A DNA stretch of 63,901 bases, filler included, from Rhizaria sp. SCN 62-66 (lineage: Eukaryota): NCBI GenBank assembly GCA_001724265.1. It is 3 parts of 3 records of this genome, joined end to end, with 100 filler letters (N's around TTAATTAATTAA, not from the genome) between each part and the next. Parts side by side here need not be neighbours in the genome. Positions count along the whole stretch, not along the records: positions 43,476 to 63,901 come from MEDY01000456.1; 2 more parts are not named here. One strand, 5' to 3'. Shown one piece after another: positions 21,641 through 58,509 of this stretch (positions within the stretch are counted from its first letter, which is position 1; the number at the start of each line of letters is the position of its first letter). A model generated the notes under the pieces. It was given only the letters and a program-made list of their open reading frames with translations. It had not been told where the DNA came from and searched no databases. The translations under genes were made by a program, and so were the position numbers.

Positions 21641-21641
21641 C

Positions 21642-21741
21642 NNNNNNNNNNNNNNNNNNNNNNNNNNNNNNNNNNNNNNNNNNNNTTAATTAATTAANNN
21701 NNNNNNNNNNNNNNNNNNNNNNNNNNNNNNNNNNNNNNNNN
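21642..21741. other. Artificial contig-joining linker (N run with TTAATTAATTAA)
   Basis: 100-nt block of Ns with TTAATTAATTAA at 21686-21697. Same design as 43376-43475. Confidence 0.95.
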
Positions 21742-22419
21742 GGATATCACATCGCGGATGAGTACGACCGATACCTAGTGTGCGGTGAGTTTGGAGCAGA
21801 GCAGTGATTACACTGGCGGAAACCCGTTCGATTGACTGACGAACTGACCTTCGTCAATTACTACTGAGCATAATGACTTTTTGTCGTTGATCGCTGCGTT
21901 AATACTGTCGCTCAGTTCATGATATCTGCCACAGTTCAGGTTGAAACAGAGATATCTGTCACGAGTAACAAAAGTGGTGTTACACATGTATTAGCATCTG
22001 CTAAAAGAAAAAACAACTTGTCAATGCATGTTAAACTGTTTCAAACGGTATATTTCATTTTAATTCATATATACACCGTTTTAGTCCATACTTCGAGTTA
22101 GATTTGAACTTTGTCGTGTGATAGTTGATTTGTGGTGGTGCGTGTGAGGCCATTCTTCATCGCAACGATACCTCTGTCAAGCTTCACAAACTCCGTTAAT
22201 TGGCGATTTGGAGTTAAAAATGGTATCTAAGTATATGTTCATGTGAATCAACTTAATTTTGTGATCAAAGATTGCGTATTCAGTGTGGAATGTACACTTT
22301 TGTACAACATTTTCCTTGACTCACCTCCATATTCTCGTTCGTTTCTCCCCGTGCCGAGCTAGTTCTGGACTTCTTGAACTCCCGTGCGCTGTACTACAGT
22401 GCTTGATTGTCTGGCATTG

Positions 22420-26752: not shown

Positions 26753-28568
26753 TTAGGCCTGCTTAACCTCGACAACCTACTGGGCCTGCGCCTGTGCCTG
26801 AGCCGCGGACATTTGCGGCGCGGAGGCCGCAGCCCTGTGCGCGGAGACTGAGGCGTGGGATGCGTGGGACCCGTGGTATGCATGCTTGCCAGAGGACGGC
26901 AGCCGCTGCGCATGCTGGTGTTGATACTGCTGCTGCTGCTGCTGCTGGTGACTGTAGTGGCCGTGTTGCTGGTGGCTGTAGCTGTTGTGCTGCTGGTTGT
27001 AGTGGCCGTGTTGCTGCTGGTACTGGTTCTGGTAGCGCTGCACATGCTGCTGCTGCTGCACATGCTGCTGCTGCGGCTGCTCCTGATGCGCCGACAACGC
27101 GTCAGGGCTCACACCGGCACCGGCACCGGCACCAGCGGCGGCGGCAGCGATTTGCTGTTGCTGCTGCATGTTGTGGATGTGGTGCTGCACGGCCATGATC
27201 TCGTGCGGAATGCTCGTCACCACGCCCTGGCCACTGACGCCACCGAGGCCGTTAAGGCCGCCAAAGCCGCTGAGGGGCGCCAGCAGCGGCGAGCCCTGGC
27301 TGAGCGGCGACCCGCGGTTCAGAGGGGAGCTGTGCAGCGGCGAGCCGCCCTGGCCCCGGCCGGGGGACGGCACGGGCGACGGCGCAGACGACTGAGACTG
27401 AGACTGAGTAAGTGCAGAGTTGACTGTCGCAGCAGGGGGCGCGTCGCGGGGGCGGCGGATGCGCCCCGTGGCGACGAGCGCGCCGACGACCGAGAGCACG
27501 AGGTCCTCTGCGAGCGCGACGCAGCGCGGGGAGCCGTGGATCATCACGTGGTGCACGTAGGGGTCCGCGACGTCGGGCGCGACCGTGACGGCGCACAGCG
27601 CGGCGGTGCGCACGGCCTTCAGCCCGGCGCCCGCGCGGCCGATGACAGCGCCCACGGCCGCGGTAGGGATGCCAAAGCGGCGCACCGTGACCGTGGGCAT
27701 GGTGGGCACGCCGTTGACCACGAGCGCGGGCGGGTACGGCGCCGTCAGCGGCAGCGCGCCGTTGCCCGGCACGTAGGGCGCGAAGCGCTCGCCGCGCCGG
27801 TCGCGCTGCAGCGCCACGATCTCGGCCGTGATGCGCGGGATGAGGGTGAGTAGCGCGACGCGGACCGACGTGGGCGTGCCCGTGACCGTGACGCAGACCT
27901 CAGAGCTGTGCGGCAGCGGCTCCGTGCCCGTCTTAATCACCGCGCCCGTCTCGTACTGGATGCGCTGCACCGTGCTGCCGTCGCGGCCGATGATCGCGCC
28001 CACGGCGGGCCGGTGCACAAGCATGCAGAAGGACGCCATCGACGCGGGTGTCACCGCCTCGCCGCGCGCAGCCGCCTTGATGCTCATGCACATCGTCGCC
28101 ACGTGCACCGCGGCCTCGACCTGGTTGATCAGCGGTGCGTTGATCACCAGCACTCGGTCTTGGATGATGCGCGCAATCGTTTGGTTCTCGGGGGCTTTGA
28201 GCACACTCAACACGACACCGCAGGCGTCGCGCAACGCAGACACAGCGGCGCCGCGCTTGCCGATAACTGCACCGATGTGATCGCGGTCAACTGAAACAAA
28301 ACAAAACAAGTGGAAATAAAAGGATTGGTTAGATGGAGTTACAAAGATAGTATGCAAAATTGGCAGCACTAGTCATGTCAAAAAAGGGAAAGAAGCACGG
28401 GCCAAGGAGTTGCTTGCGGCAATCGCATGCCTCACAAAAGCAAGCATACAGGCTTAAAATAAAGGAGAGTTGACAAAAATTGAGTGGAATCAGATTTAAA
28501 AGCGTACCTAAAGCACGAATGCTGAAGTTAGTCTTGGGTGCGGCAGCAAACTGCGGGGTTATCGACAT
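26753..28568 (-). CDS. Triple-KH-domain RNA-binding protein (PCBP/hnRNP K-like); exons 28568-28508, 28290-26753
   Basis: Three GxxG KH motifs (IGAVIGKRG, VGAIIGRDG, VGAVIGRAG). A phase-1 intron joins MSITPQ...SIRAL to VDRDHIG. Gln/His-rich tail AQAQAQ-TAG-VVEVKQA-TAA. The end would be 26777 if TAG were a stop. Confidence 0.88.
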
Positions 28569-35643: not shown

Positions 35644-36945
35644 TCACAGCGCGGCGGTCAGCTTGCGCGCGCGACTGGCCCTGGCCGCGCGCGCCGCCGC
35701 CGCCACGCGGGTCAGCGGCAGGTCCCTCTGCATGCGCGCAACGGTCTCTTTGCACTCGCGCTCGAGCTCACGCGTTGCCTCCACCTAATTTACTGCGACC
35801 GCTGCTGCAGCCTGAGCGACTGCGGCAGTGAGGGCGGCGGCGGTGGCGGCCAGCGCGGCGTCGAAACGCAGCAGAAACGGCCCGTTCCTTAGCATCGCCG
35901 CCGGAGCTGCGCAGAGCTCCGCAAACGCGCCGCCCAGCGCTAGCAGCGCCGCCGCGACGGGCTCTGCGACGGGCTGCTCTGCGACCGTGGACGCAGCGGC
36001 GGCAGATGATGGTAATGCATTGGGCGCTGTGGCGACGAGCGCGGGAAAGCGCGCCCGCGCGCCGAGGACGGCTGCGGCGAGCGCGGCGGTAACACATGCG
36101 TCCTCGAGCGCGCGGAAGGGCACCAGCGCGGCGGCCGCGGCGTCCCCGCGCATGGCCGCGGCCGCTGGAGCGAGAGCGGCGCGCAGAGTGAGCGTGGCGT
36201 GGGGCACCTCGGGGACGAAGGGCGGCGCGGCGGGCGCGGGCAACAGAGAGAGCCCCGGCGCGGCGCGCGGCAGCCACACCGCCACCAGCCGCGGCTTCTG
36301 CTGCTGCTGGGGCGTCGCAGTCGCAGTTGAGGCTGCAGAGACTGTGGTCGAAGCGGCGGCAGCGGCAGAGACGGCGGCAGAGATGCAGAGCCAGTCGGCC
36401 TCGGCGCCGCCGGTCACGAAAGACTTGAAGCCCGAGAGCGCCCACTGCTAAGCAGGCCGCACAGCTCTGCTGTCGATGTCGTCGTCATCGCCGGAGTCGG
36501 CTGCAGGAACGGGCACGGCGGTGGTCTTGATCGAGTCGCGGGTGGGCGGGCGGCGGCCCTCAGTGGAGCACAGGGCGCCGAACTTGAGCCAGTCGTGCCG
36601 CAGCGTGGCCTGCAGCGCCACGGGAGAGCCTTTACCGAAGGACTCATCGCCGCGGCCGCTGCGTTCGAGCTCGGTGGCGCGCGCGAGCGCCTTGAGCGCG
36701 GCCTGGTAGCCCGCGGCGAAGGCGTAGCCGAACCGGTCGCTGCGGTAGCCCGCCAGCAGCGACACCGAGAACGGGTCCAGCGCGGCGCCCAGCGCGGCGC
36801 CGGCGGCACTCTTCACGGTCAGGTCGGCAATAACGCCAGAAAACACTGTCTGACGCCATACAGAGTACGATGACGCCGGTGTACACGCCTCGGAAGCACT
36901 TAAATCAGATGTGATGTGCGTCAGAACGCTCCTCCAATCAGCCAT
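35644..36945 (-). CDS. Bacterial-type acyl-CoA dehydrogenase family protein (~433 aa) with two in-frame TAGs (36448-36450, 35785-35787)
   Basis: Reading through TAG gives DRFGYAFAAGYQAALKAL...ALCSTE...*QWALSGFKSFVTGGAEAD...PFVPEVPHA...GD...PFRALED...*...RMQRDLPLTRVAAAARAARASRARKLTAAL-TGA, the motif order of acyl-CoA dehydrogenase-like proteins. Confidence 0.8.
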
Positions 36946-37334: not shown

Positions 37335-40300
37335 ATGGAGCCACATCCCACACGCACAGGTCCGTTCTATGCACCGCCGAGTTTACCCTATTGCGGGCCA
37401 TGATTTCGAGAAAGACTTCTTTGCTCACATATGAAGATGTAAAAGATCTTCGTAGTCGAGAGATGGCGCGATCCCGCGTTACCATTGACGCATGCTGCAC
37501 CGCCGGACATACTGCACTCCACACTTTTCGAGTCAACGTTTCTACGGCCAATCTCACATGTTGAGCCAGATTCTCTCTGTTCCAGTGACTTTTTATTCGA
37601 TATCTGAGTATATTTTTACGTATGCACATTCTCATTCAAATCTTTTTCCTTCAAACGCCAATCTTCTCATCCTATACCTATCTTTTCCACCCCCTCAGGC
37701 TACACGTCTGATGCTAAGCTGCTTTTACACAAGGGCCGTAAGCACGCCCTAGAGGGCCCCCGCCGTCTGGCCCAACTTCACACAAAACTCAAGGTATGCA
37801 CGCGTTGCTGTCTTTTATATTTTTCACTTCTTGCCCTTCTTGTGGCTCTTTTTGACCTGAATCTCACCCGAAACACTCATCCACACACCCCTCCTCTTCT
37901 TCCCCCGCCCTTTCTGCGCTTGCTTGTACGCTTCATAATCCCACTACAATTTCGTCATATTAACCCCCACAACTTGCACGCACTTGTCTGCTTGATTGCA
38001 CACACGCATATGCAGGCGTCGGGCCTCGTTGAGCGCTGCGTGTCGCTGCCGGTGCGCGAGGCGACGGACGCCGAAGTGCTGACTACGCACACCGAGAAGC
38101 ACCTCTCAATGCTGCGGTCGCTGGCGACGTACAAGTACTCTACGACGCAGCCGTACGTGTTCCTGGACGACTACGAGGACACGTACGCGTGCCGCGAGAC
38201 GCCCACAGTTGCGCTCTCGGCCGCGGGTGCCGTCGTGGACCTCACGCTCGCGGTGGCGTCTGGCGAGCTGCGCAACGGCTTCGCGGCCGTGCGCCCACCC
38301 GGCCACCACTGCGGGCGCGAGGGCCCGCAGGGCTTCTGTCTGCTCAACAACGTTGCCATCGGCGTTAACGTTGCGCGCAAGCAGCTGCCCGACAAGATCA
38401 AGAAGGTGCTTGTGGTCGACTGGGACGTGCACCACGGCAACGGCACCGAGGAGGTCTTCCTCAACGATCCCGACGTGCTGTTCTTCTCCATGCACCGCCG
38501 CGAGAAGCACTTCTTCCCTGAGACGGGCGACTCGATAATCATCGGCGGTCAGCCCGTCCCCGCGCCCGCGGGCGTGCCCGGCGGCGCCCACCAGCCGCCC
38601 GAGGGGCCCGAATCGGCCTCTGTCGCCGCCGCCAAGCACGCCAACGCCGCCGTCAACGCGCTCTACGGCCCCGGCGCGTCCCCCGCGCCCTCACCCGCCG
38701 CGCGCGCCGCAGGCGCCACCCCCGCGCGCGCGGGCTCAGGCTCCGCGGGCGTCGCGGGCGTCGCCGGTGACAGCAGCGCCGGCGCCGGCGCCGGCGTCAA
38801 GATGGAGGACGACGGCGTCGCGGCCTCGGCGGCGGCGCTGCGTGCGGCGGCCGCGGCGGGCGGCGTCAAGGCCGAGGGCGGCGACGTGCCCTGGCTTACG
38901 GGCGCCGCCGCCGCCGCCGCCGGTGGTGCTGCTGCTGCTGCTGGCGACAGCAAGGTGGCCGCCGTGCCCACCGCGGCCTCCGGCGGCGGCAGCGGCGTCG
39001 ACGGCGACGCTGGCGCCGCTCTGCTGCCGAGCTCAGCGCTGGACGTGACTGCGTCGCCGCGGCCGCTCACCGCTGCGGGCCTCTCAAGCGCGGGCGCGAG
39101 CATGTCGCTGACCGCGCTGCGCGGGGCGGCCGCGCTGTCGTCCGACTCTGAGGACGAGGACGACGACGAGGCGCTCGACGGCGACGACCTCGACGAAGAC
39201 GACGAGGGCGACAGCGAGGACGGCGACGACCTCTCGCTCGTCGACGACAGCGGCGACGACGGTACCGTGGCCGCTCTGGCCGCCGACGACGCCGTGGTCG
39301 ACATGGAGTCGGGCGACGAGGCCGGGCTGCTCGCGTTGCTGTCGAGCGACGACGAGGGGCTCGTCAGCGAAGAGGAAGAGGAGGAGGACGCGGACGCCGA
39401 CGAGGACGAGGACGCGCGCCGCCACCGTCGCCGCCTCGCCGCGGCCCGCGAGCGCCTCGCTCTAGTGCGCCTCACGCGCGCGCGCAAGGACGCGCGCCGC
39501 CTCGAGCGCGCCAACGCGCGCCGCATTGCGCGCCGCAAGGCCCGCCGCGCCGCGCTGCGCGCCGCCGCCAACGCGGGTGACGCCGACAGCGTTGCGGGCG
39601 GCGCCGCGGGCGGCGGGCTGCGCGCGCGCGCGCTGATGGGTTCCCCGTCGGCGTCGATGTCCATGTCGATGCGCCGCGTGGGCTCGGGCATCAACTCGCC
39701 CGACGCCAGCAACGCCGCGGGCAGCAGCAACAGCAACGCCGCCATCGCGGGCGCGGTCGCGGGCGCGCCCACCGCCGCGGGCGCGGCCGCCGCGGTCGGG
39801 TCCCCCCGCGTGACCGGCGCCGCACGCGTGGCGGGCGCGGTCGGCGCGTCACCGCTGGCGGGCGGCGCGGCCGCGGCCACGGTCTCGGGCTCGGGCGTTG
39901 GCTACACGGCGGCCGGCGCGGCGCTCGAGGCGGGCCACTCGTCCATGGTGGGCGGCGCGCAGTCGCTGTCGCAGTCGTTGTCGAGCGGTGGCGGCGCGGG
40001 CGGCAAGAGCGGCGACACGCCCGTGCTGGAGGAGGCCAACCCTGCGGCGCGCGGGCGCACGATCAACGTACCGCTGCCGATCGCGCTGGGCGACTACGAC
40101 TACCTGCAGCTGGTCAAGACCACGCTCGTGCCTCTGGTGCTCGAGTTCAAGCCGGACCTGATCGTCGTGTCGGCGGGCTTCGACCCCTCGCCCAACGACC
40201 CGCTGGGCGGCGAGTCAGTCACGCCGGCCGGCTTTTACGCCTTCACGCGCCTGCTCATGGCGCTCAACCAGCGCCTCGTCGTCTGCCTCGAGGGCGGCTA

Positions 40301-43300
40301 CCACCCGCACGACGTCGCGGACTCGTCCGAGGCGTGTCTGCGCGCACTGCTGGACCTGCCGCTGACGCCGACGGAGCAGGAGCTGCAGCAGACGATGTTG
40401 GCGGCCGCCGCACAGGCCGCGCTGGCCGCGGGCGCGAGCATCACTCCGCAGCAGGAGGCCGCGCTGGCGGCCGTGGCGCAGCCGCCCGAGGTGCCGCCGT
40501 ACATGCCGTCGCTGCCGGCGCTGCAGGCGGCGCAGGAGCAGTGGGCGCCGCTGCGCGCGGTGTGGCCCGAGTTTGACGCGTGGGCCGAGCGCGACCCGGC
40601 GACTGTGTGGCCCGCGCTCTGCACGCCCGTCGACACGCGCGAGACGCTCGAGGCGCAGCTCTGGCCCGCCGCGCGCTCGCTGCTGCAGCGCCAGCAGCTG
40701 CTGCTGCAGCAGCGCGAGGCCGTGCTCGAGCGCCTCAACGACGTTCGCGCGCAGCTCGGGCTGCCCCCCGTCTCCAGCTCCAGCGCCGTCGCTGCGACTT
40801 CTGCGGCGGCGAGTGAGGAGACCAAGACTGAGGGCGCCGCGGGGGCCGCGATGGGCGACGGCGACGACGCCGCGGCCTCTGCATCTTCGTCCTCTGCGGC
40901 GGCGTCGGCGGGCAAGAGCGCGCAGCGGCGCGGGCGCGGCGCGGGCACCACCGAGACGAGCAACAGCGTCAACGTGCACGCGCTCAGTAGCGCGGCGGGC
41001 GACGGCGCGGCGGCGACATCTGCTCTGCTGCAGGCGGCCGAGGCGGCGAGCCAGGCCGCCGAGAACGAGCTCAGCACGGTACAGACCGAGGTCAACGCGG
41101 CGCTTGCGCGCGCGGTCGGCGCCGCGGGCGGCAACTCGGGCGGGTCCACCGGCGCGACGACGCGCGGCAGCTCCAACTCGAACGCGGCGGCCGCGGCGGC
41201 GGGCCACCCGCTGAACCCCATGGTCGGGCTCGCCATCCAGGCGGGCGAGTCGGAGACGGAGACGCGCACAATCGCGCTGGCGAGCCTCATCGAGGCCGCG
41301 CTCGACACGCTCGTGTGCCACCGGCCGTACTGGACCGTGCTGCAGCGCCACCACGACATCATCGAAGGCATGCTGCGCGCGTGCTACGAGCGCCCGCCCG
41401 CGGACCCCACGGTGTACTTCGGCGCGCTGCCGGCGCAGACGATGCGCGACCGCGAACGCGACCGCGAGCGCGTGACGCGGTCGCGCGACGGCTACTCGCG
41501 CGCGCTCGACGGGCTGGCCGCGCAGTTCGGCCCCGGCGAGGGCCCCGCCGCGTTCCAGAGCGCGCGCCTCAACTCGCGGCGCGAGCGCGACACGCGCGAC
41601 CGCGACCGCGACGGCGACGGCGCGCGCGCCGCGGACCGCGCGGCGGCCAAGCTGGCCAAGGACCTTAAGGCCGAGCGCGACCGCCTGCGCCGCACCAAGG
41701 GCCGCCCGGGGCGCTACTTCGAGTCGGCGCCGGCGCACCTGCAGCAGCAGGTGCAGGCGCAGCAGGCGGCGCAGCAGGCGGGCCGGCAGCGCGTGAAGCG
41801 CGCGCGGCAGGGCGCGGCGGGCGTGCGCGGCGCGGGCCACCCGGGCGCGGGCGGCGCGTACATGCACTACGGCGACCAGTGGGGTGGCTATGGTGGCGAG
41901 CAGGAGGCCGCGGCGGCCGAGGCGCTGTACGACCCCGCGCAGGCGCCGCAGCGCTTCCATTTCGACAACGCGTCGGCCGTGCAAGTGCTGGAGGAGCTGT
42001 TTCCCGATTCGGTGTGGGCCGATTTCCAGTCGCGCCACCCGTCGAAGCAGCAGCAGCTGCTCACCGAGCTCATGGACCTCGCGCAGACGCCGCTGGCCGC
42101 GCCCGCGCTGGCGTGTCTGTTCCCGCGCCTCGTGCGCTCCGACGGGCTCGACTTCGCGGTCGTGCTCGATGTGCTGACGGACCCCAACTCGGTGTACCTG
42201 CCGCAGGAGGTGGTCGTGAAGCTCGACGTGGGCCCGCGGCTGGAACACCTGCCCGAGACGGACCTGGACCTGCTGGTGCTCAACGAGCCCGTGCAGGGCT
42301 GCGAGCGCGCGGCGCTGGTGGCGGCGCCGCTGCACGAGCAGGTGGAGCTGCTCAACAACACGGCGCAGCAGGGCGTGACCAACGTTATGACAGTGGGCGA
42401 CGTCCCGCTCGCGCACGCCGTGGGTGACTTCGACCGCCGCTTCCCGAACCTCAACCCGCTGCTGCCGGTGTCGCCCGCAGCGATGCGGCTGCAGGCCGAG
42501 CTGCACTCGCTGCAGGCGTGGCACGCCACGGCCGTCGGCCACGAGGCGGCGCACGCCGCGCAGGCCGCGGCCGAGGGGCTGCCCGCGCCCGACCCGGCCG
42601 TGCCGGCGCCGGGGAACGTGTGCACGTCGGCCGAGGTGGAGCGCGCGTACCACGAGCGCGAGCAGCAGCTCGCGCAGCTCCAACTCGCCGCGCTCGAGGC
42701 GCAGCTCGAGGAGGTCGCTGCCATGCAGGCCAAGCGCGAGCGCGTGCGGCTCGTGCTGTACAACCGGCTGATGGAGATCCAGGCCGAGCGCGAGCAGGCG
42801 GAGCAGGAGCAGGAGGAGCTCATGCGTCGCCAGGCCGCCGCGCGCTACAACGCCATCGTCTCGCGCCTGGTCGCGGACCCGCTGGCCCTGACCGTGGACC
42901 AGGTCCCTGCGGGCGCGGAGCGCGGGCTCGCGCTCGAGGCGCAGACGCTGGTCGAGCAGGAATGTCTGGCGGAGCTGCAACAGTCGCAGCACGCCGACAC
43001 GATGGCGCTGTGGAGCGCGGCCGAGGCCCGCGAGCGGGCCGAGCTGGAGGACGCGCGCCGCCGCGAGGACAACGCGCTGCAGCGCCAGCACCTGCAGCTG
43101 CAGCGCCAGCAGCAGCAGCACGAGCAGCGCCAGCTCCAGCTCCAGCAGCAGCAGCAACAGCAGCAGCAGCTGCTGCTGCGCGGCGAGCACCGCGCGGAGC
43201 ACCACCGCGACCACCGCGACAAGCACCACAGCGAGCACAAGGACAGCTCGCCGGTGCGCGGCTCGACGCAGCGCCGGCCCTCGGCCGCGGCGGCGGCGTC

Positions 43301-43375
43301 GGCGATCACGGCCGCCGCCAACGCTAACACTCGCGAGCGCCGCGGCGGGCGCGCCTCGGCCGCGGCCGTGCGCCG
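37335..43375 (+). CDS. Class II histone deacetylase (HDA1/HDAC6-like) with large insertion and long C-terminal extension; exons 37335-37359, 37699-37793, 38016->43375 (3'-truncated)
   Basis: Spliced N-terminus MEPHPTRTGYTSDAKLLLH...HALEGPRRL...GLVERC. Motifs RPPGHH, GFCLLNN, DWDVHHGNGT, TINVPL, SAGFD and LEGGY all present. Confidence 0.92.
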
Positions 43376-43475
43376 NNNNNNNNNNNNNNNNNNNNNNNNN
43401 NNNNNNNNNNNNNNNNNNNTTAATTAATTAANNNNNNNNNNNNNNNNNNNNNNNNNNNNNNNNNNNNNNNNNNNN
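43376..43475. other. Artificial contig-joining linker (N run with TTAATTAATTAA)
   Basis: 100-nt block of Ns with TTAATTAATTAA at 43420-43431. Confidence 0.95.
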
Positions 43476-46400
43476 CCCGCGCCCGAGCTCGCGAAGCTCC
43501 GCCGCATCCCCGACATCGTGCAGGGCCTCAAGCCCTCGCCCGAGTGGGTCAACCCCACCACGGTCGCCCCCACCTTGGCCACCACCCTGCCGTTCTACTC
43601 CATGTCGGCCCCCAACGCCCCCGCCGCCGTCCCCGGCTCCGTCGCGGCCCCCACCTTCCCCATCCAGGCCTCTCTGATGGAGACTGAGGCGCAGTCCTGG
43701 TCCACCCTCAACTCCGGTGTCGCCTCCCTGCTCGAGGACTCGGTCAACTCCCACGAGGCTAACGTCCAGCTCCTCGCCGAGCTCTCCTCCTCGCTCGCCA
43801 GCGCCGTCGGCGCCGAGGCCGCCCCCGTGCTGCTCTCGGTCGACGAGTCGCTGCTCGCCGAGTCCGAGGCCGAGCTCTCCACCGAGGCCGAGGTCGCCGA
43901 GCACCACTCGGCCGCCGCCGCGCACGACATCCCCGCGCAGTTCGCCTTCGTCCGCGGCGCGCGCACGCTCGACAACTCCGTCGACGCGCTGGCCGCCGAG
44001 CAGGAGGCCCACGAGGAGCTCCTCGCCGACAAGATCTCCTTCCTCGAGCAGGCCATGGAGGTCGCCCAGGACGCCGCCGCCGAGACCGAGACTGAGGCCG
44101 ACCTCGAAGCCGAGCTCGACTCCGAGGCTGACTCTGAGGCCGAGGCTGACTCTGAGGCTGACGCCGACGCCGAGTCCGAGGCTGATGCCGAGTCCGAGGC
44201 CGAGGCCGAGAACGAGAACGAGGGCAACGACGCCAACATCGTGACCGTCGGCCCCTCGACCACCGTGTCGCAGCTCCGCGCGCACCTCGCCGCCTCCGGC
44301 GCGCTGCCCCTGTCGCCCCAGTTCGCCTGGTCGCAGTACGCCAGCTCGCCCTACCACCCCTACGTCGTCCGCTCGCTCGCGCACCGCCTCGCGGCCGTCC
44401 GCGCACGCCTCGCCTCCTACCGCCTCGACGCCGGCCTCTCGGTCCGCCGCCTCGCCGGCAAGGTCAACGGCTTCCTCAACAAGCTCGCCCGCGCCTCCGT
44501 CGTCGAGCGCCGCATCGTCGCCCGCGCGCTGTCCACCCGCGCGTCGGACCTCAAGTACCGCGCCTCCCGCCGCGCCATCGCCCGCCGCGCGCTGAAGAAG
44601 GCCCAGAAAGAGTACAAGTCGACTGCCGCCGAGGCCAACGCCGCCAAGTCCGAGCTCAAGAAGGAGATCAAGAAGCTCGCCGACTCCAAGGCCATCAAGG
44701 CCGAGGTTGAGATCGCCAAGAAGGCCACCGTCACCAAGGCTGCTGAGCCCACCAAGGCTGCTGCTGCGCCCGCCGCCAAGGTTGACAACGCCGCCATCGC
44801 CAAGGCTGCTGCCCAGGCCGTTGTTGAGCAGGTCAAGAAGAACACCGACAAGGCCGAGGCCGCCATCAAGGCCGCCGTCGCCGACCCCGACAACAAGGAG
44901 AAGGCCGCCGCCGCCGCTAAGGCCGTCGAGACCCAGTCCGCGGACAAGGCCAACGCCGTCAAGGTGATCGCCGCCGCCAAGGAGGCCGAGCAGGCCGCCG
45001 GCAACAGCACCACCGCGCAGGCCAAGATCGACAAGCTCAAGGCCTCTGTCGCCTCTTTCCTCGCCATCGACAACGCCACCGTCACCGTCGTCGCCAACGC
45101 CTCCGCCCCCGCGGCCGCCGGCAACAAGACCAACGCCACCGCCCCCGCCGTCGCCGCTCCCGTTGCCGCCGTCCAGAACCGCACCGTCACCGCCAACGCC
45201 TCTGCCACTGCCCCCGTCCCCGTCCGCAACGCCACTGCCACCAACGCCACCGCCCCCGTCAAGCCCGCCGCGCCCGCCGCCGGCAACTCGACTGCTGGCA
45301 ACGCCACCGCCAACGCCACCGCCCCCGTCAAGCCCGCTCCTGCTGCGAAGCCCACCAACGCCACCGCGAGCAACGCGACTGCCGCCGCCAAGCCTGCCGC
45401 TGCCGCCGTCGACGCCGTGAAGAAGGCCGAGGACGCCAAGAAGGCCGCCGACGCCGCCGCCAAGAAGGCCGCTGATGCCAAGGTCGCCGCGGACAAGAAG
45501 GCTGCTGAGGCCAAGGGCGATGCCGAGAAGAAGGCCGCTGAGACGGCCGCCAAGGCGAACCCCGTGTCCGCGCTGCAGGCGCTCAAGGACAAGATGGCCG
45601 GGCTCGAGAAGCTCGTCGGCGAGCTCTCCGCTCAGAACAAGGCCGCTGTTGACCAGATCAACAAGGCTGCGGAGGAGGAGCGCGTGCGCGTCGAGGCTGC
45701 CAAGCAGCTCGAGGAGGAGACCAAGAAGAAGGCTGCCGCCGAGGTCGCCGCCAAGGCCAAGGCCGAGGAGGACGCCAAGAAGAAGATCGCCGACGAGGAG
45801 GCCAAGAAGGCCGCCGACTCCAAGAAGGTCGCCGAGGACAAGGCCAAGGCTGACGAGGAAGCCAAGAAGAAGGCCGAGGAGACCCGCAAGGCCGTCGACG
45901 CCGAGAAGGCCCGTCTGCGCGCCGCCAAGGAGGCCGCCGACGCCAAGGAGGCTGCCCGCAAGCGCGAGGTGGAGCAGCAGGCCCGCAAGGAGCTCGCTGA
46001 GGAGGCCAACAAGGCCGCTGCCCTCGACGTCGTCGCCAACCGCAAGATCAACCAGCTCGACCGCGACAACGGCGTTGCCCCTGCCAAGGCCCAGGCCGCC
46101 AAGGCCGACAACGGCAAGAAGGTCGACGACGGCAAGAAGGCCGCCGCCACCGCTGCCAACGTCCGCACCGCGTGCGAGAACGCGTCCAAGTTCCACGCCC
46201 AGTGCGTCGCCAAGAAGGACACGTCGGACAAGTGCGAGCGTGCCATCGCGGCCATGAACAGCGACTCGTGCAAGCCCCTGCTCGCGGGCAACACCGCTGG
46301 CTCCTTCTTCGAGTCCGAGGCTGAGGCCGAGGTCGACGTCGAGGCAGAGTACGAGCTCGAGGCCGAGACCGAGGCTGAGACTGAGACTGAGGCTGAGGCC

Positions 46401-46736
46401 GAGATGGAGACCTACTCCGAGGCCGACGCCGACATCGACGCCGAGCACGCCGCGCTCGCCGAGGCCGACTCGGACTTGGGCTTCGCCGAGGAGGTCGACA
46501 TGGACGACGCCGAGTCGATGGCCAACGAGATCAACAACCTCGCTGCCGGCGCTCTCGCCGAGGATGCCCAGGAGCTCGCCGCTGAGACCCCCGTGGACCA
46601 CCTCCCCGTGACTCCCCGCTTCCGCGCCGCCGACGCCCCCGCGTACCGCGTCTCTGGCGCGCGCGCCTCGGCTGGCGTCAACATGATGGACAATGACGTC
46701 TTCTCCCAGATCGCCCGCGCTCTGGACCAGAACTAA
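43476..46736 (+). CDS. Repetitive, probably secreted or structural protein (E-x-E acidic blocks, NxT-rich stretch, Ala/Lys/Glu coiled coil); 5'-truncated
   Basis: Open from the contig start to TAA 46734-46736. Codon bias like the ribosomal protein genes. About 14 N-x-S/T sequons at ~45000-45390. Repeated S-[LF]-[LMF]-E motifs precede E-x-E runs. Confidence 0.8.
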   Translation, partial: PAPELAKLRRIPDIVQGLKPSPEWVNPTTVAPTLATTLPFYSMSAPNAPAAVPGSVAAPTFPIQASLMETEAQSWSTLNSGVASLLEDSVNSHEANVQLLAELSSSLASAVGAEAAPVLLSVDESLLAESEAELSTEAEVAEHHSAAAAHDIPAQFAFVRGARTLDNSVDALAAEQEAHEELLADKISFLEQAMEVAQDAAAETETEADLEAELDSEADSEAEADSEADADAESEADAESEAEAENENEGNDANIVTVGPSTTVSQLRAHLAASGALPLSPQFAWSQYASSPYHPYVVRSLAHRLAAVRARLASYRLDAGLSVRRLAGKVNGFLNKLARASVVERRIVARALSTRASDLKYRASRRAIARRALKKAQKEYKSTAAEANAAKSELKKEIKKLADSKAIKAEVEIAKKATVTKAAEPTKAAAAPAAKVDNAAIAKAAAQAVVEQVKKNTDKAEAAIKAAVADPDNKEKAAAAAKAVETQSADKANAVKVIAAAKEAEQAAGNSTTAQAKIDKLKASVASFLAIDNATVTVVANASAPAAAGNKTNATAPAVAAPVAAVQNRTVTANASATAPVPVRNATATNATAPVKPAAPAAGNSTAGNATANATAPVKPAPAAKPTNATASNATAAAKPAAAAVDAVKKAEDAKKAADAAAKKAADAKVAADKKAAEAKGDAEKKAAETAAKANPVSALQALKDKMAGLEKLVGELSAQNKAAVDQINKAAEEERVRVEAAKQLEEETKKKAAAEVAAKAKAEEDAKKKIADEEAKKAADSKKVAEDKAKADEEAKKKAEETRKAVDAEKARLRAAKEAADAKEAARKREVEQQARKELAEEANKAAALDVVANRKINQLDRDNGVAPAKAQAAKADNGKKVDDGKKAAATAANVRTACENASKFHAQCVAKKDTSDKCERAIAAMNSDSCKPLLAGNTAGSFFESEAEAEVDVEAEYELEAETEAETETEAEAEMETYSEADADIDAEHAALAEADSDLGFAEEVDMDDAESMANEINNLAAGALAEDAQELAAETPVDHLPVTPRFRAADAPAYRVSGARASAGVNMMDNDVFSQIARALDQN

Positions 46737-49888: not shown

Positions 49889-50324
49889 GAGGAAGCTCAA
49901 TTCGCGCAACTACAAACGCGCGTGCCTGTGCGCACTCCAAGCTGAGTAATAGCAGTAGTAGAGCGCAATGTGTGTGCGGTGTGTTGATCGGAGCCTCTGC
50001 TGTCGCTACTGTGTGTGTGCCTCTGAAAGGCGCGTAACAGTGCGTAACTTTGCCCCACCCTTTTATATTTTGTTGTCAGTTCTCCTTTTTCGTTTTTAAA
50101 TTTGTTTTACAATGTCATGTTACGAGTGATAGCTATAAATACGGCTTACTTTAGTTACGTGCTACAATACATCACGTTTTATCGTTTTTAAGTGCTTTTG
50201 TGGTCACGCCTACCAATCCTGAGAATCATGCCCGCCAGAGTCGAGACCTGTTGGAGAAGTGTATCTCGCTCAAAAGTCCGTTAAACAGCCAGAAACGCAT
50301 ATACCCAGTGATCCCGCGAAGGGA

Positions 50325-52433
50325 ATGTCATATTCTTCAAATAATAATCGCGCAGGTGCTGCTGGTGGGGCGGGACACGCCCCTCAGCGCGCCGTTAGTG
50401 CAGCCAACCAGCCTCTGCTTGACGAGTTGGGCACTTGGTTTGCGATCGAGGACTCGCGCGGCAACAACCACATGCTCACGTCTATCCGCAAGGTACGCAT
50501 GGATTCTACCTTTTACTCGCAGTATATCCCTTCACTTCAAGAATTCATGGCTACATCTACATTCTTAGGAACTTCTGACCGTTGATGGTTCTCACTCCCT
50601 CCTTAACTTCTCTTACACGGTCTGCTCTCTTTGCACTTCAACTCCATTGCTCTCTCAGACAATGGCCGGTGTGGCCGCCTTTGCGACGCCAATTACAGAC
50701 GGCCGCCAGTGCGCGTCGCTCGACGGCGTGGGCCCGCACACGGCGGCCAAGGTCACCGAGATCCTCAAGATCCTGGGCCTCTACGTGTCCGTATCTGCGG
50801 GGCCCTCGCTGACGACACCGCCGCGCCCGGCCGACGCGGCCCGCGCCACCGCGTCTACGCTCTCACTGGACGAGCTGGAGCGCGCGCACCCGGCCAGCGC
50901 GGCCAACGCGCCGCTGCTGCGCGTCGTCGTGTCGTGGCTGCGCGCCGCCACCGCGGCTGCCGCGACGGGCGCCGCGCTGGCCGCCGGCTGTAGCGCGCGC
51001 ACACTGCGCGTCGCGGCCGAGTCCGTCCGGCGCTACCCGGTCCCGCTTGTGCCCGAGGATGCGCGGTGCCTCAACGGCGTCACGGCACAGCTCGCCAAGC
51101 GCATGAGCGCGTTCCTCACTGACGGCGTCGGGGCAAGGTTCGTGAAGCTTATTTCTTTAATCAGTCGCTGTTCTATATTTTAGAGTATTTTATTGTTTAA
51201 TTTAATGAAAACTGCCTTATTTTAAAGATATTTTCCGCACTCTTGATATATCCCGACTTTTACCACCTTTGCACGACTGCATGTTAGGCGTGAGGCTGCA
51301 CTAGTCGGGCTCGCAAGCAAGGCCACCGGGGCCCCTGTCCCTGCGCCTGTGCCTGCTCCCGCGCCTGGCTCCGCGGCCGCCGCCGTTGCTGCTGCTGTGG
51401 GGGCACCTGCTGCGGCTGGAGTGGTGCCGCTGTCAGTGCAAGTGAAACAACAGTAGATTTACGAGCAAATTCAGCAACGGCAGTACCAGCAACAACTAAG
51501 GCAACAACAACAACAGCAGCAGTACAAAGACGAGGAGGGCGACAACTACGAGTGGATGTACGATTATGACGATGAGCAACCTAAGGCCGCCGCCGCCGCT
51601 GCTGCCGCTGCCGCCGCTGCCGCGGCCGACGCCGCCGCGGCCGCTCCTGCTGCTGGCGGAAACCGCGGCCGCAAGCGCACGGCGCCCGATTCCCCGGCCG
51701 CCGTGAAAGCCTCCCCCGGCCGGGCTAACACCAACGCGAGCGCCGTGGCCGTAGCCGCCCCGGGCCTCGCCCCCGCGCCGTCCGACCCTGCGGCCGACGC
51801 CGCGGCGGCCGCGGTGGCGTCCGGCCCCGGGGGCTCACGTGTGGTGCACCCCAAGTCGTTTCCGCCGCTCAAGTACATGCCGAAGCCTGCGTCGGGCGGC
51901 TACGCGCTGCTGATCGCGCTGTGGGAAGGCACGGCGGCGGCCTGGGAGCAGTGGACGCAGCGCCACAACGCGCCCGGCACAGAGGCCACGGCGCCTCTGC
52001 GCTGGTCGCGCGAGGTCCAGGGGTTGCCGTCGCTAACGCCTGCCGAGGCCGCCGCCGCGCTGCCGCCGCCGCCGCCGGGCGCGCGGAAGCCGCGGCGGCC
52101 GACCAAGGCCGAGATCAAGGCGGTTGGGCTAGCCACGCTCGAGATCTCCCCGCGCTTCAAGTACTACATGACCAGGCAGGCGCTGTTGTCGACCGCGCCG
52201 CGCTGGTGCCCGGGCGTGTGGCGCGCAAACGCAGCCGAGCGCTACACGGCCTGGTCCGCCATGGCGATGCTTGTTCGCAAGCGCTACGTCGTGTCTTACT
52301 ACCCGGCGGGCGCCTACTACATGGCTTACCAGCTCACGCCCGCCGGTGCCGTCGTGGCCAAGAGCCTGTGGCGCGCGGCGCACCCCGGCCGCGAGGCGCC
52401 CGCGCCGCGCTTTCGCGCGGGCGCGCACGGCCG

Positions 52434-52467
<34 letters not shown>

Positions 52468-55400
52468 CATAATGACGACGCGGGGGGCGAGGACGGAGAG
52501 GACCTGGCGGCCGTGCTGCAGCGGCAGCAGGCGCTGGCACACGCCAACCCCGGCGCGGGCCAGCAGGGCGCTATCGCGCGCGCCTACGACCGCAAGCGCG
52601 GCCGCCTCAGCTTTGGCGGCGGCGGCTACGGCGGGGCCAGGGCCGGCGGCGGCGGCCTCAGCCCCGGGCGGGCGCTGGCACTGGGCGGTCTCGGCCTCGG
52701 TCTCGGTGGTGGACTCGGACACGGGCTTGCGATGTCAGGCGGCAACGATGGCGCTAACGCCGGTGCTAAAGCGGGTGGTGGCCTCAGCGCCGAGCGCATC
52801 CAGTTGCTCACGAGTGCGGGTATGGGTCTGGGCATGGGCGTCGTCCCCAATCACGGCAACCGGAAGAGCGGCAACAGCTTTGCCGGTGGTTTTGCCGGCC
52901 TGGGCAAGGGCCACGTGCTGGGCGACGAGCCTCTCCCCCCAGCCCGCGGCCCCGGCGTCTCTCCGGTGCGCAGTCTCGCGGCGGCGGCCTCTCGTGCCCA
53001 TGGCCAGCAGCCGCTGTGGATGCAGCAGCAGCAGCAGGCACATGCGGCGCAGGCCGACGCCCGCGCGAACGCGCACGCCGAGGCCATCGCGGCCAAGATG
53101 GAGGCGATCACTGACGCGCACAACAGGCTTAAGGCCGACGTTGCAGCTGCTGCAGCCGCTGCGGCCGACAAGAAGCTCTTTGGGCCCGCGATCGCCTCGG
53201 ACTCTGTCTCTGCTCCATCGCTTGCGCCTGCGAGCTCCAGCGCTGCTGCTGCTGCTTCTTTGAAGGATGATTTCATTGAATATGACATCGACGACGATGA
53301 CGATGACGATGACGACGACGTGGGCGCCATCTTTTGCGCCATCGAGGACGATGACTTTGGCAGCGCCGAGGACGCGTACGGCAACGACCACCTGCTTGAC
53401 TACGACGACTACGTCGACAACGACAGCGACGCCTACGACGACGACCATTAGCTCGACTCGACGGGCTCGAAGAAGCGCCAGAACAAGACGCCGCGCGCCT
53501 CTCAGAATGCCGGCTCTAGTGCAAGTGCGAATGTGAGTGTATTTAACGTTGACGATGACGACGATGACGACGACGATCTCGAAGCTGTGCTGGTCGCTAT
53601 TGCGAAAGCCGAGGAAAACTACCGTCTCTCGCAGCAACAGCAGTATTCTTCTCGATACGGCAGCGGCAACAACAGCGATATTCAAATCCTCGGTGACGAC
53701 GATGGCGATGACGACTATCATTACCCGCAGCAGCAACGCCCCCGACAGCCGCCCGCATCCTCATCCTCCGCCTCAGCCTTAGCCCCCGCCTCCGCTTCCT
53801 CAAGCGACCGCTCGCTGGGGCGGTCGCCGAGCTTCTCCGAGGGCGCCGCGGCGGCTGCGGTGGCCGCCGACTGCAGTCTCGACGACGCGTTTAAACTCAT
53901 CTCGGCCGCGGAGGCCAAGGCGGCGGCCGCGGTGGACGTTGCTGCCGCCCCCGTCGCGAGTGTCAGTCGAAGCAACAGCGGCGGCAACGCCGCGCGGCGC
54001 AGCGAGGAGGACGAGGAGGAGGACCTGCAGCGCGCGCTGGCTGCCGTCGCCAAGGCCGAGGCGGAGGCCGAGCAGGCTGCGGCGGCGGCCGAGGCTGAGG
54101 CTGCTGCAATTGCCAGGGCCGTGGCCTTGGCTGATGCTGAGGAGGCCGAAAAGGCCGCAGCCAAAGCCAAAGCCCTGGCCAGTGCGAGCGCTGCCTCTCC
54201 TGCTCCTCGTATGAGTGCAAGTACGAGCACGGACGCGCGGAATGGTGCTGCAAACATTAGCGATGGCAGTGGTAATGACAGTGATTTCTCCATTGTTGAG
54301 ATTGTTTCATCTTCCTCATCATCATCGTCCTCTTCAGCGTCTTCAACGTCGTCTTCTTCAGCATTCGCGTCGAAACATGAGTTCAAGAGGTCGAACGATG
54401 ACTCGAGCAAGAGCAGTGCGAATACTGCGCCTGCTTTTGCTGCTGTTACTGCTACAACTGCGAGCCGCGATACGATGAATGACAGCGACGTCATCGTGCT
54501 CTCCGACACCAGCGCAGCCAACACGACTTGCGACAAAGACGACGACACCTATAGCTGCAGCCACAACCACAACAACGATGACGACGGTTATAACAACTAC
54601 GACTACGATAACTACTTGCTTGACGAAAGCTACAGCAACAGTACCAGCGCTCTCAACGACAGCAACGCTGGTGCCTACATTCACAGCAATGACAACAACA
54701 GCAGCAACAACAGCAGCAGCAGCAGCTCAGGGAGAACTGTGAGCGACAATACCCTTACGAGTGACAGTGCTGCCGGCGCAGCTTCTGCTGCTGCTGCAGC
54801 TGCGGCTTCGTCTTACAACGACTCCAAATCTAAGTATGATTACGACGACGATGACGGTGCCATTGATCTCTCTTGCTCGCAATCCTCGTCGTCATCGTCT
54901 TCATCGTTATTCTCTGCCTTTGTGCTTGCGTCAAAGACGACGCATGCATCAGAATCATCAGCAACAGTATCGGCATCGGCATCATCGTTGCGGCTTGCCA
55001 CGAACGCCAGTCTAAGCACCCCCATAGACACCGACGCAACCGCAGACTATGACGCCACCGCACTGCTCTTATTTCTCAGCGACCACAATAGCGCCGCCGC
55101 CGCAGCCCCGGCCCCGCTCGCTCTCTCCCGCGCCACACACCAGCAGCAGCGTCAGCAGCAGCAACGCTCGCAAGAGCAGCCCCCATCGGCGTCGCCGCTG
55201 CTGCTGTGCCCGCCGCCTCCGTACAAGCCGACGTTCATGGGCCCCCCGCCGTCGCTGTCGTCGGCCCCCGTGGCGGGCGCCTTCTCGCTCGCGCACTTCG
55301 ACATCGTGCTGCTGCTCGACCTCCGCGAGTCCTACTCGGGGCCTAACTCGGACGCTTGGCGCGCTGCGCAGAACCCCGCGCGCCGCGGCGGCCGTGGCGG

Positions 55401-56718
55401 CGCTGGCGCAAGCGGACGCGGCGGCCGCGGCGGTGCTTCTGCTGGCGGCGCCGGCGGCGGAGGCGGCTCGGGTGGCGGCGACCGGTCCCGCACGGCCGTG
55501 GAGGCGCTTGCGCGGATGCTCGCATCGCCGTCGCTGCGCGTCGAGGTCTCCACGCTGGCGCTGGGCGACGTGCTCTGGGTCGCTGAGCACCGCGCAACTG
55601 GCCGCCGCTGGGTACTGGACTGCGTGCTGGAGCGCAAGATGACGGCGGACCTGGTCGAGTCGATCCGCGACGGGCGCTACCACGAACAGCGCGACAGGCT
55701 GCGCGCTTCGGGGCTGCGCCGCGTCACCTATCTCATCGAGGGGCCAATCAAGGGCGAGAAAGGCCCCACGCTGCCGCGCTCCTCCACCGCCCACAGCGGC
55801 GGCGGCGGCGGGGGCAACGCGGCGGCTGGGGCGGCTGGCTGGAAGCCCGACTTCGGCAGCAAAGCCTTTTGGGCCAACAAGAACAAGCTCAAAAAAGCTG
55901 CCGCCGCCGCCGCGGTCAACGGCGCGAGCGCGGGCGGCATCGGCCCGCAGTCTGCGCTAGCGGCGCCGGGCGCGGACGCGGGGCTGGACCCGCTGCTGCC
56001 CAGCAACGGCGCCGCGGGCTTAGGCGGCTCGGGCGCCGCGGGCTCCGGCTTCCGACTCATCGACACGGCCGCGCTGGAAACCGCGCTGGCGACACTCGAG
56101 ACGTGCTTCGGCTTCGCGGTCTACAACAGCAGCGGCTTCGACGACACCAAGGCCTTTCTCGCGACCGTGCACGCCGAGCTCACGGCGTGGTACGGTGCGC
56201 CGGAGGTTGCGCGCCGCGTGCGGCTGCAGGACCCCGCCAGCTTCAGCCTCAGCCCCGTCGCGAAAGGCTCTACTGCAACAGCGGCGACGGCGGCGGCGGA
56301 GTCGGCTGCGATCCGCGGTGAGGGCGAGCTGTTGGAGGCGTTCAACGCGCGCATGCGCAAGCGCGGGCAGTTTTCGCACGCGACGCTGTTCCTCTCGCAG
56401 CTGCGGCAGGTCAAGGGCGTCGGCCCCAGCCAGGCTGCGGCGCTGGCGCGGCGCTTCCGCACCCCGGCGCGGCTGGCGGCCGCGCTCGAGGCCTGCGCCA
56501 CGCCGCGCCTGGCCGACGCCATGCTCGTAGAGGTCTGCGCGGCGGCCGCAGCGGCGGGCGAGCGCGCGGCCAAGAAGCTGGTGCCCGCGGCCGCGGCGCG
56601 CGTGCGCGAGGTGTGGATGGAAGCGAGCTACGCGAGCGCGCCAGCACAAGGACCTGCGACACAGAGGACTGTCACGATGGAGCCTGATATCGACGAAGAT
56701 GATTACGTTTTCGAGTGA
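50325..56718 (+). CDS. MUS81: Crossover junction endonuclease MUS81 (~2025 aa); exons 50325-50492, 50659-51137, 51288-56718; two in-frame TAGs (51454-51456, 53449-53451)
   Basis: N-terminal HhH (NQPLLDELGTW...SLDGVGPHTAAKV), winged helix (YMPKPASGGYALLIALW...YTAWSAMAMLVRK...YQLTPAG), ERCC4 nuclease (LLLDLRE...LGDVLWV...VLERKMTADLVESIRDGRYHEQRDRL...YLIEG) and C-terminal HhH (QLRQVKGVGP). All colinear in one spliced frame. Stop TGA. Confidence 0.92.
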
Positions 56719-57037
56719 TTTTTTGTTATAACAAGTATATTTGTTTATTATATAGTCTAATAGCGAGTTGATTTGCATACATAGAATTTTCAAGTCAGTC
56801 GATGTTCAAATGTCCCCTTTCGCGTGTTCCTCTCCTCCGCGCACCGCAACGAATCTTCAAAGCTTTGAAAATGGGCGGTAAAAAACGTCAACCTGCCCTA
56901 TAAGACGTCCGTTAATAGATGTGATGCCGCGTATCCTAACATTTCATATGTGTTTTGACATTATATCAAATTATTACCTTCATTTCACCCTGTTAATTTG
57001 TTGAAAATACCTCTTTTGATTTCACAGACTCCTCAGT

Positions 57038-58509
57038 ATGCCCCCTAAGAAGCGCGGAAACAATAACAACAATAAGAACGCGTCCTCGGCTGCTTCTGAT
57101 GACTCGATCTTTGCCACGCCGCCCGCCCCTGCGCCTGTTGCTGGTCCCACCGCTGCGGCCCCCGTCGCTGCGCCCCAGGCCGCTTTGACGTCCTCGTCGT
57201 CCTCCGCCGCGGGCGATTCCGCCGCCGACGCCGACGCTGAGGCCGCGGCCGCCACGGACGACACTGCTGAGCCTGCCCCGCGCGTGCGCACAGCCGAGGA
57301 GGAGCGCGAGCGCGAGCTGACCGCCACGCGCCAGAAGTTGCTGTCGGACCTGCGCCGCCTGGAGGCGATCGAGGGCGCCAACGCCCCCTCGGTGCTGCCC
57401 GGTTTCGACCCTGCGGCGTCGCGCAAGCACCAGTACAACGTCGCTACCACGCCCATCTTCAAGGCCGCGGGCGCGGAGGCGCAGCTGAAGCTCGCGCTTG
57501 CCGCCGTGGAGCGCTTTGTAGACGCCGCGGCCGAGGGCAAGGCGCGCGAGGCGTACTGGCAGTCCCGATGGCAGCGCGCCACGCGCATCTCCCAGCTCAC
57601 CGACCAGGTACGCAGGCAAATCATCGCAATACGGCGAACGCATAAAATATGATCATATAGCGTTGTGTGTTCAATGATAAGTGGATGATGTATGCTCTTA
57701 TTCTTTTGACTTGATGAACCTATCTCTCTCACAACGACTTCTTGTTGCTCATTTTGCAACCATGCACGCGCCGACTCACGCACGCACGCACATTCACACA
57801 GACTCTGGCGGACATGTCGAAGAACACGTCCGCGCTGTCTGCCATCTACGACGACTCGACGGCGGCTATGCGCGCACAGCTGGCGGCCGAGCGTGCGCGC
57901 AACGACGACCTGCAGGCGAAGCAACAGGCGATCCTGCACACGATCGACACGCAGGTTGCCGACATGCTCTCCAAGCAGCGGCTGCTGCTCGAGGAGAACG
58001 ACTCGCTGCGCGCGAAGCTGACGCAGGCGCTGGACGCGAGCCAGAAGCTGCAGCATGCGAGCCAGCAGGTTGAGCGCGCCTACGTCGCCGAGCGCGCGTC
58101 GCTGGCCGACTCGCTGGAGCAGGCCGCCGTGCTCGTCAAGGAGGAGCGCGCGAAGCGGCTCGCGAGCGAGGATGCGCACCGCGGGGACCTGCAGGGCTTT
58201 AGCGCGCAGTTCAAGGAGCAGGTGCGCGTGATGGAGGAGGCGCGCAAGACGGGCGAGCGCAAGGACAAGGTGCTGCGCGAGTGCCAGGAGACCTTCCAGG
58301 CCAAGCACGCGCTCGACGAGAAGCGCATCACAGAGCTATCGCTCAAATACGCCGAGCTCACGAAGCAGCACGAAAAGCTTAAGGTGGTCTTCGCGGCCTC
58401 GCTCAAGAAGCAACAGCAGCAGCAGCCGGGGACCGACGCGGCGGCTGCGGAGGCAGCGCCGGAACAGGCTGCCGAGTCTGCGGAGACTGCTGCTGCGGCT
58501 GCTGAGTGA
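57038..58509 (+). CDS. Coiled-coil protein (weakly taxilin-like); exons 57038-57607, 57802-58509
   Basis: Phase-0 intron GTACGC...CACAG joins QLTDQ to TLADMSK. Heptad-rich C-terminal half. Stop TGA. Confidence 0.75.

Follow-up and report, generated by a model that had tools for sequence, protein, structure and literature searches.

Does a gene with two stop triplets in its reading frame encode one protein, and if so, how are those triplets read? The question is raised by a gene for MUS81 at positions 50325-56718 (plus strand) of a 63,901-nucleotide stretch of DNA from the assembly GCA_001724265.1, filed under the name Rhizaria sp. SCN 62-66. The whole of this stretch is what we call the window. 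The MUS81 frame contains two TAG triplets, here named TAG1 and TAG2, both in linkers between conserved domains. The features of the window suggest that UAG is likely a rarely used sense codon in the source organism, UAA and UGA serving as stops, and that UAG alone among the three stops has changed meaning. The initial annotation had proposed that MUS81 is read as one polypeptide through two sense TAGs. The order of the domains, the open frame and the conservation of the gene with an orthologue support this proposal; it is further backed by three more TAGs in two homology-supported genes and by 17 gene ends, none of which is clearly a TAG.

The MUS81 gene model comprises three exons and 2026 codons, in a single frame that is open save for the two TAGs and that ends with TGA. 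Its parts are as follows.

50325-50492, plus strand: exon 1, 56 codons starting at ATG 50325, first half of the N-terminal helix-hairpin-helix (HhH); splice predicted from the sequence
50493-50658, plus strand: intron 1, 166 nucleotides (nt), GTACGC..CTCTCAG, GC content 0.44, pyrimidine fraction 0.67, phase 0; predicted from its GT..AG ends, composition and frame
50659-51137, plus strand: exon 2, two HHH_8-type HhH modules, by match to Pfam HHH_8
51138-51287, plus strand: intron 2, 150 nt, GTTCGT..GTTAG, GC content 0.32, phase 2, with in-frame stops inside; likewise predicted from GT..AG ends, composition and frame
51288-56718, plus strand: exon 3, a single frame of 1810 codons that contains two TAGs and closes with TGA
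51454-51456, plus strand: TAG1, in a Gln-rich linker between HhH and winged helix; context VKQQ*IYEQIQQ, CAA CAG TAG ATT
53449-53451, plus strand: TAG2, in an acidic linker between winged helix and nuclease; context YDDDH*LDSTG; local GC content at third codon positions 0.90

The ATG at 50325 is the first one past an in-frame TGA at 50220, and exon 1 ends at the donor AAG/GTACGC at position 50493. The coordinates of the initial annotation were accurate wherever checked. In particular, the phase-2 intron joins exon 2 to the TAG-bearing frame, as had been claimed, and translation combined with the Pfam positions places TAG1 between the HhH and the winged helix, inside a Gln-rich run, and TAG2 between the winged helix and the nuclease.

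Translation of the segment 51289-56718 yields 1810 codons interrupted by just two stops, each a TAG, with no frameshift and with a TGA terminator at 56716-56718. The remaining five frames of the same segment contain 21-56 stops each. When the exon 3 stretch was shuffled with codon positions preserved (2000 shuffles), the mean number of stops was 30 and the minimum 15. This openness bears on the idea that the TAGs do terminate translation and that the winged-helix and nuclease parts are made apart, by reinitiation or from internal transcripts. A nuclease-only MUS81 fragment folded with its partner in solved structures, and the PDB chains retrieved with our sequence (306-311 residues) matched the C-terminal part only, both of which would suit separate products. 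However, separate products do not require that about 660 and about 1090 low-complexity linker codons be open in the same frame, and two unrelated genes of the window show this pattern too (see below). We consider this explanation extremely improbable.

Pfam recognizes HHH_8 in exon 2 as two stretches (E 2.7e-11, 44.1 bits against a cut-off of 30). The N-terminal HhH module thus appears in tandem across 50659-51137 of the plus strand, where the translation also shows two units of the form N(Q/A)PLL. Three more domains were located in exon 3.

52144-52368, plus strand: MUS81-like winged helix, exon-3 residues 286-360; PF21136, E 9e-5, 23.2 bits, below the cut-off of 27
55507-56163, plus strand: ERCC4 nuclease domain, exon-3 residues 1407-1625; PF02732, E 6.2e-20, 72 bits against a cut-off of 24
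56389-56601, plus strand: C-terminal HhH2 (EME1/MUS81_C), exon-3 residues 1701-1771; PF21292, 20.6 bits, below the cut-off of 27.4

The order that had been described for this gene, HhH, winged helix, ERCC4, HhH, was therefore found by Pfam, with the winged helix and the C-terminal HhH scoring below cut-off. The latter was also detected with phmmer, which aligned query residues 380-445 with residues 213-278 of human MUS81 (35 bits). Comparison of the winged-helix and N-terminal HhH segments with PDB sequences gave no significant match, and an AlphaFold2 single-sequence model of the winged-helix segment (predicted local distance difference test score, pLDDT, 40.4) was too poor for a structure search. 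MUS81 proteins are typically about 550-650 residues long. Like the human and zebrafish MUS81-EME1 structures (PDB 4p0p, 2zix, 2ziu), the protein predicted here has the ERCC4 signature GDxxWVA...ERK..DL..DGR..EQ and a C-terminal HhH2, both of which align; it differs from them in its size (about 2025 residues), in the duplicated N-terminal HhH, in some 1000 linker residues and in large insertions within the nuclease domain.

The catalytic motif of the nuclease, GD...ERK...DL (LALGDVLWVAE...VLERKMTADL), aligns with that of human MUS81 and is invariant with respect to an orthologue, P0002, so that the earlier statement that the catalytic GD and ERK motifs are intact is borne out. P0002, a gene-call fragment of 381 residues, comes from a related organism, on a contig of 37.5 kb. 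With the nuclease and HhH2 part, which lies downstream of both TAGs, it shares 58% identity, and the catalytic residues are all invariant. The MUS81 TGA falls within a few residues of the P0002 C-terminus, in a tail where the alignment is gapped. A scan of metagenome contigs returned a second assembly of the same locus (contig L001, see below) and 79 distant MUS81 loci, with best-segment identities of 26-55%; the contig carrying P0002 was not among them. No second MUS81 copy was seen in that scan, outside of which lies the organism's whole genome, and a scan of genome contigs found no MUS81 relatives. The gene is probably intact and, judged from its sequence, probably encodes one protein of about 2025 residues.

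Misassembly does not explain the TAGs. L001, a contig of 8322 bp from a second metagenome assembly, corresponds to positions 49979-58300 of the window with two substitutions, and both TAGs as well as the TGA are present in it. In addition, contigs of runs X6 and X10, which come from another study and are labelled RNA-Seq but were judged to be probably DNA, span positions 53329-53537 with TAG2 unchanged and one difference elsewhere. Four polymorphisms in MUS81 separate the assemblies and runs: 50890 (P to T) and 56207 (V to G), which differ in L001, and 53507 (N to S) and 54223 (T to A), which differ in the run contigs. The approximately 1.9 kb of L001 that flank MUS81 show no polymorphism.

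Comparison with RNA made use of Logan contigs rather than raw reads. A poly(A) RNA run, X5, contributes exact pieces within exons at 50665-50907, 51807-52421, 53329-53430, 54744-54913, 55357-55530, 55579-55803, 56260-56453 and 56703-56867, with DNA carry-over in this run being possible. None of the X5 pieces listed bridges either MUS81 intron or either TAG, and there is no joint at the predicted splice sites. The joints that were listed in RNA contigs have sides of 20-24 letters in low-complexity repeats and were therefore taken as spurious. Depth in X5 is zero in the bins 50200-50647 and 51096-51319, which are covered by X4; this indicates a lack of cover only.

In-frame TAGs are found elsewhere in the window. 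Marking the long open reading frames (ORFs) for in-frame TAG and TAA identified three extra TAGs in GC-rich coding context, in two genes, and one TAG whose status is ambiguous.

23635-23637, plus strand: in-frame TAG in a conserved gene without Pfam match, ORF 22378-24990, which ends at TAA 24991; orthologues cross the site
36448-36450, minus strand: in-frame TAG in an acyl-CoA-dehydrogenase-like gene, 35647-36945, with same-frame homologous blocks on either side
35785-35787, minus strand: second in-frame TAG in the acyl-CoA-dehydrogenase-like gene, within collinear homology
26777-26779, minus strand: ambiguous TAG at the end of a KH-domain gene, with TAA 26755 eight codons further on

An exhaustive HMMER search with ORF 22378-24990 returned 80 homologues at E<=0.001, 36 of them at E<=1e-30. 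Two orthologues, P0004 and P0006 (67% identity), cross the position of TAG 23635 in one ungapped stretch. In this column P0004 and P0042 have R and P0006 has C; eight more distant sequences are unreliably aligned there. The window's own database fragments break at the site, P0007 ending at residue 419, just before the TAG, and P0005 restarting at residue 466. The conserved C-terminal half of the ORF bears the motifs RGPQxLDLLRY and DIVYGE. All ten clusters of the family that were looked up are metagenomic and lack an informative name; no family member was found in a scan of viral contigs, and P0005 gave no usable match in the ESM Atlas.

The acyl-CoA-dehydrogenase-like gene is interrupted twice. 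Its pieces are collinear with the homologue P0085 over residues 55-76 (E 3e-8), 113-230 (E 1e-14) and 292-304 (E 0.009), and both TAGs, 36450 and 35787, lie inside insertions relative to two distant homologues. The latter were the only ones returned by a whole-protein search, which was dominated by low-complexity words; a word-index search with the first 200 residues, in which such words also dominated, found nothing. These only detectable relatives are short proteins (300 and 323 residues, 39% identity), and the gene has no obvious intron. A bacterial origin by transfer is possible. Taken together, MUS81, ORF 22378 and the acyl-CoA-dehydrogenase-like gene amount to 3108 codons that are free of frameshifts and of in-frame TAA and TGA.

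The tail of the KH-domain gene reads ...AQAQAQAQ TAG VVEVKQA TAA, so that TAG 26779 may be a further sense codon or the window's only TAG terminator. Inspection of the six sites (51454, 53449, 23635, 36450, 35787, 26779) showed that the base preceding the TAG is T in four (codons CAT, CCT, GCT, AAT) and C in none. Third positions in the TAG-bearing genes are T in 14.5% and C in 43% of codons, and a post-hoc binomial test gives p ~0.005 for the T before TAG. This bias could stem from a decoding-context preference, from avoidance of CTAG, from an acceptor-like sequence or from chance.

The acceptor-like appearance of TTAG, which matches the acceptors of confident introns, is one of the reasons to ask whether very short, GC-rich or alternative-acceptor introns that we failed to recognize take the TAGs out of the mRNA. 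The six confident introns of the window are 120-266 nt long, with GC content 0.32-0.48, a pyrimidine content of 60-68% and the donors GTACGY, GTATGC, GTTCGT and GTAGCA. Exhaustive enumeration of GT..AG pairs that are in frame, 30-400 nt long and placed around a TAG found candidates at every site: 51138-51500 for TAG1, a 36-nt pair ending at 23635, and pairs of 63-69 nt ending at 36450; a 39-nt pair read by eye, 53413-53451, ends at the AG of TAG2. The position of both acyl-CoA-dehydrogenase-like TAGs within insertions would also agree with excision. However, the candidates around 53449, 23635, 36450 and 35787 all have a GC content of at least 0.55, and none has both a donor that matches and the composition of an intron, in contrast to the pyrimidine-rich confident introns with their GTAYGY-type donors. 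Removal by an intron of the confident type is not possible for four of the five TAGs. Furthermore, the close orthologues keep the residues that the 36-nt excision at 23635 would delete, and TAG2 is unspliced in the contigs of X6 and X10, though these runs are probably DNA.

The case of TAG1 is less clear-cut. This triplet belongs to a poly-Gln-encoding island of 78 nt with 42% GC, and it could be skipped by the 51138-51500 intron (363 nt, in frame, GC content 0.51, no pyrimidine tract) or by tiny A/C-rich intron candidates. Elsewhere in the window, similar islands of raised AT content are clearly low-complexity runs within coding sequence. Removal of the TAGs by introns, which the initial annotation had named among the findings that would undo its proposal, therefore has no plausible form at TAG2, while a weak alternative splice model exists at TAG1. 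As an account of the whole set of TAGs, unrecognized introns are in our judgement quite unlikely.

Alternatively, the frame might be restored at the RNA level, with A-to-I editing turning UAG into UGG (Trp) in the mRNA, as happens in the sexual stage of filamentous ascomycetes. MUS81 has a role in recombination, which would fit such a scheme. Excerpts of two papers (PMC11156358, PMC10776026) document editing of premature UAG in fungi, with a preference for hairpin loops and for U at position -1, and count 71 such UAG-edited pseudogenes in Fusarium graminearum. In several of the six minimum-energy folds computed around the TAGs of the window, the dot-bracket structures, read by eye, place the TAG in or beside a hairpin loop; yet these folds are no stabler than those of shuffled sequences (z -0.5 to +1.25). 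At the column of TAG 23635, the sole testable site, the R, C and W codons would be single-step neighbours of one another, but the residues found in relatives include no conserved Trp. No A to G change at 51455 or 53450 is listed among the contig differences, RNA cover at both places being unproven. The ORF 22378 family, lineage-specific and with only metagenomic relatives in the ten clusters, speaks against a well-sampled ascomycete as the source. Finally, editing would leave the missing TAG at 17 gene ends unexplained. We view editing as very unlikely.

These 17 gene ends, a small sample confined to the window, include those of the histone deacetylase and PCI-domain genes as counted from the ORF marking. 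The first in-frame TAA or TGA is TGA in nine genes and TAA in eight; none ends clearly with TAG, the KH-domain gene being ambiguous. One of the TAAs follows the sequence ...YTRKISKKK, which is the conserved C-terminus of ribosomal protein eS8 in solved ribosomes; TAA therefore truly terminates. If TAG accounted for between a fifth and a quarter of all stops, the chance of finding none in 17 ends would be about 0.01-0.02. The combination of common TAA with no TAG ends in a GC-rich genome is suggestive.

Several observations weigh against a reassignment of UAG. The TAGs are few (about five in roughly 16,000 ORF codons) and clumped, with a 2+2+1 distribution over three of some 17 genes, a pattern resembling decay. 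All five occupy unconserved or inserted positions, so that no amino acid can be assigned to them. Random nonsense mutation in the three genes would produce TAG in 58-60% of cases, and the probability that five of five are TAG is then about 0.08. The MUS81 polymorphisms are nonsynonymous in 4/4 cases, and that at 56207 alters a Val conserved in P0002. To these must be added the alternative splice at TAG1 and the resemblance of TTAG, found at four of the six sites, to a splice acceptor. Lastly, the window contains no tRNA gene, hence no cognate CUA anticodon to show, and no eRF1 gene.

Much of this would suit a different history, in which the standard code applies, the TAGs are true premature stops, and all three genes (MUS81, ORF 22378 and the acyl-CoA-dehydrogenase-like gene) exist as pseudogenes or nonsense alleles. 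Clumping, TAG as the likeliest nonsense outcome, the four MUS81 polymorphisms, all nonsynonymous, and the unconstrained position of every TAG all favour it. Decay fails, however, to account for the absence of any frameshift, TAA or TGA from 3108 codons rich in slippage-prone repeats. It is also at odds with the intact catalytic motif, with conservation between orthologues of the region downstream of the TAGs, with the lack of TAG at 17 gene ends, eight of which use TAA, and with the finding of identical TAGs in the second assembly. We think decay unlikely, and retain the sense reading of UAG as the probable one.

According to that reading, UAG would not be a dedicated stop but a rare sense codon, and genes would end at UAA and UGA. 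An amino acid would be inserted at UAG either by a tRNA with a CUA anticodon or by efficient near-cognate reading combined with a release factor that does not recognize UAG. The product of the MUS81 gene would carry two N-terminal HhH modules, a winged helix, the ERCC4 nuclease and a C-terminal HhH2, separated by long low-complexity linkers in which the UAG-encoded residues would lie. Glutamine is our guess for the identity of these residues, because TAG1 is embedded in a poly-Gln run and because UAG, where reassigned, most often becomes Gln; it is a guess that we hold with about equal belief and doubt, leucine or another residue being possible. Most known stop reassignments are in AT-rich genomes. 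Somewhat speculatively, the source might be an unsampled lineage with a GC-rich genome in which capture of the UAG codon is at an early stage and usage is low: UAG would have been lost as a terminator and would have come back only where positions are free of constraint (about 0.03% of codons), perhaps with a preference for T before TAG.

If UAG is indeed a sense codon here, the case bears on how reassignments start and would offer a natural test of codon capture against an ambiguous intermediate. It also bears on the annotation of eukaryotic metagenome contigs, as the public gene calls for this DNA break off at each TAG (fragments P0001, P0005 and P0007), and on which hosts might support viruses that use a TAG-sense code. 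In practical terms, MUS81 should probably be translated as a single protein of about 2025 residues.

The source is an uncultured, GC-rich microbial eukaryote that occurs in bioreactor and wastewater metagenomes. The words of the window are almost completely present (0.99) in three such metagenome runs (X1-X3) and partly present in eight further runs, from seven studies in all. GC content ranges from 0.45 to 0.76 in 2-kb windows, spacers and introns being AT-rich. The remaining genes include ordinary eukaryotic ones: a PCI-domain protein, a BTB/BACK-SPRY protein, zuotin, the KH protein, a class-II-type histone deacetylase, a COPI-associated protein and ribosomal protein eS8. The eS8 fragment scores similarly against many PDB eS8 chains, singling out no lineage. 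Rfam has no matches within the window.

The histone deacetylase gene is about 2900 codons long (38016-46736, plus strand) and has a long Ala/Lys/Glu-rich tail. Its catalytic domain is recognized by Pfam as two stretches with a low-complexity insertion of several hundred residues between them, and its end is TAA 46734, with a TGA six codons on. Two blocks of N, 21642-21741 and 43376-43475, share the same layout (44 N, 12 bases, 44 N); one of them lies within the histone deacetylase ORF and the other within ORF 19790-21853.

Among known systems, ascomycete A-to-I editing resembles the present case in that genes look like TAG-interrupted pseudogenes in DNA, while full-length proteins are encoded there (excerpts of PMC11156358 and PMC10776026). 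As these excerpts describe it, UAG is changed to UGG in RNA, specifically in the sexual stage, and TAG stays a normal terminator (PMC11156358, PMC10776026). The window, in contrast, has no clear TAG terminator among its 17 gene ends, no conserved Trp at the one testable site and no sign of an ascomycete.

Phyllopharyngean ciliates have gene-sized, AT-rich chromosomes. The window differs from them in being a 64-kb multi-gene stretch with spliceosomal introns of 120-266 nt, high GC content and giant low-complexity proteins. Still, the available text of PMC11687900 lists these ciliates (UAG as Leu or Gln), together with Protocruzia tuzeti (Gln) and Scotinosphaera (Ser), as UAG-only variants; they have UAG as a sense codon and UAA still as a stop, as is probable for the window. 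In the portions of the literature consulted, such UAG-only reassignment with UAA kept as a stop is reported from a handful of eukaryotic lineages (PMC5304391, PMC11687900).

The closest parallels are the rhizarian exLh, with UAG read as Leu, and Iotanema spirale, with UAG read as Gln; in both, UAA and UGA are kept as stops, as excerpted from PMC5304391. The same excerpts give 384 UAGs in 71 genes of exLh, many at conserved Leu columns (PMC5304391), as opposed to about five in roughly 17 genes here, all of them unconserved. The genome studied here is, unlike those of exLh and Iotanema, GC-rich (0.45-0.76 in 2-kb windows). What the window shares with both organisms, as far as the excerpts of PMC5304391 describe them, is that the in-frame stops are exclusively UAG, that genes end with UAA or UGA, none of the 17 ends in the window being clearly a TAG, and that gene callers split the genes at UAG.

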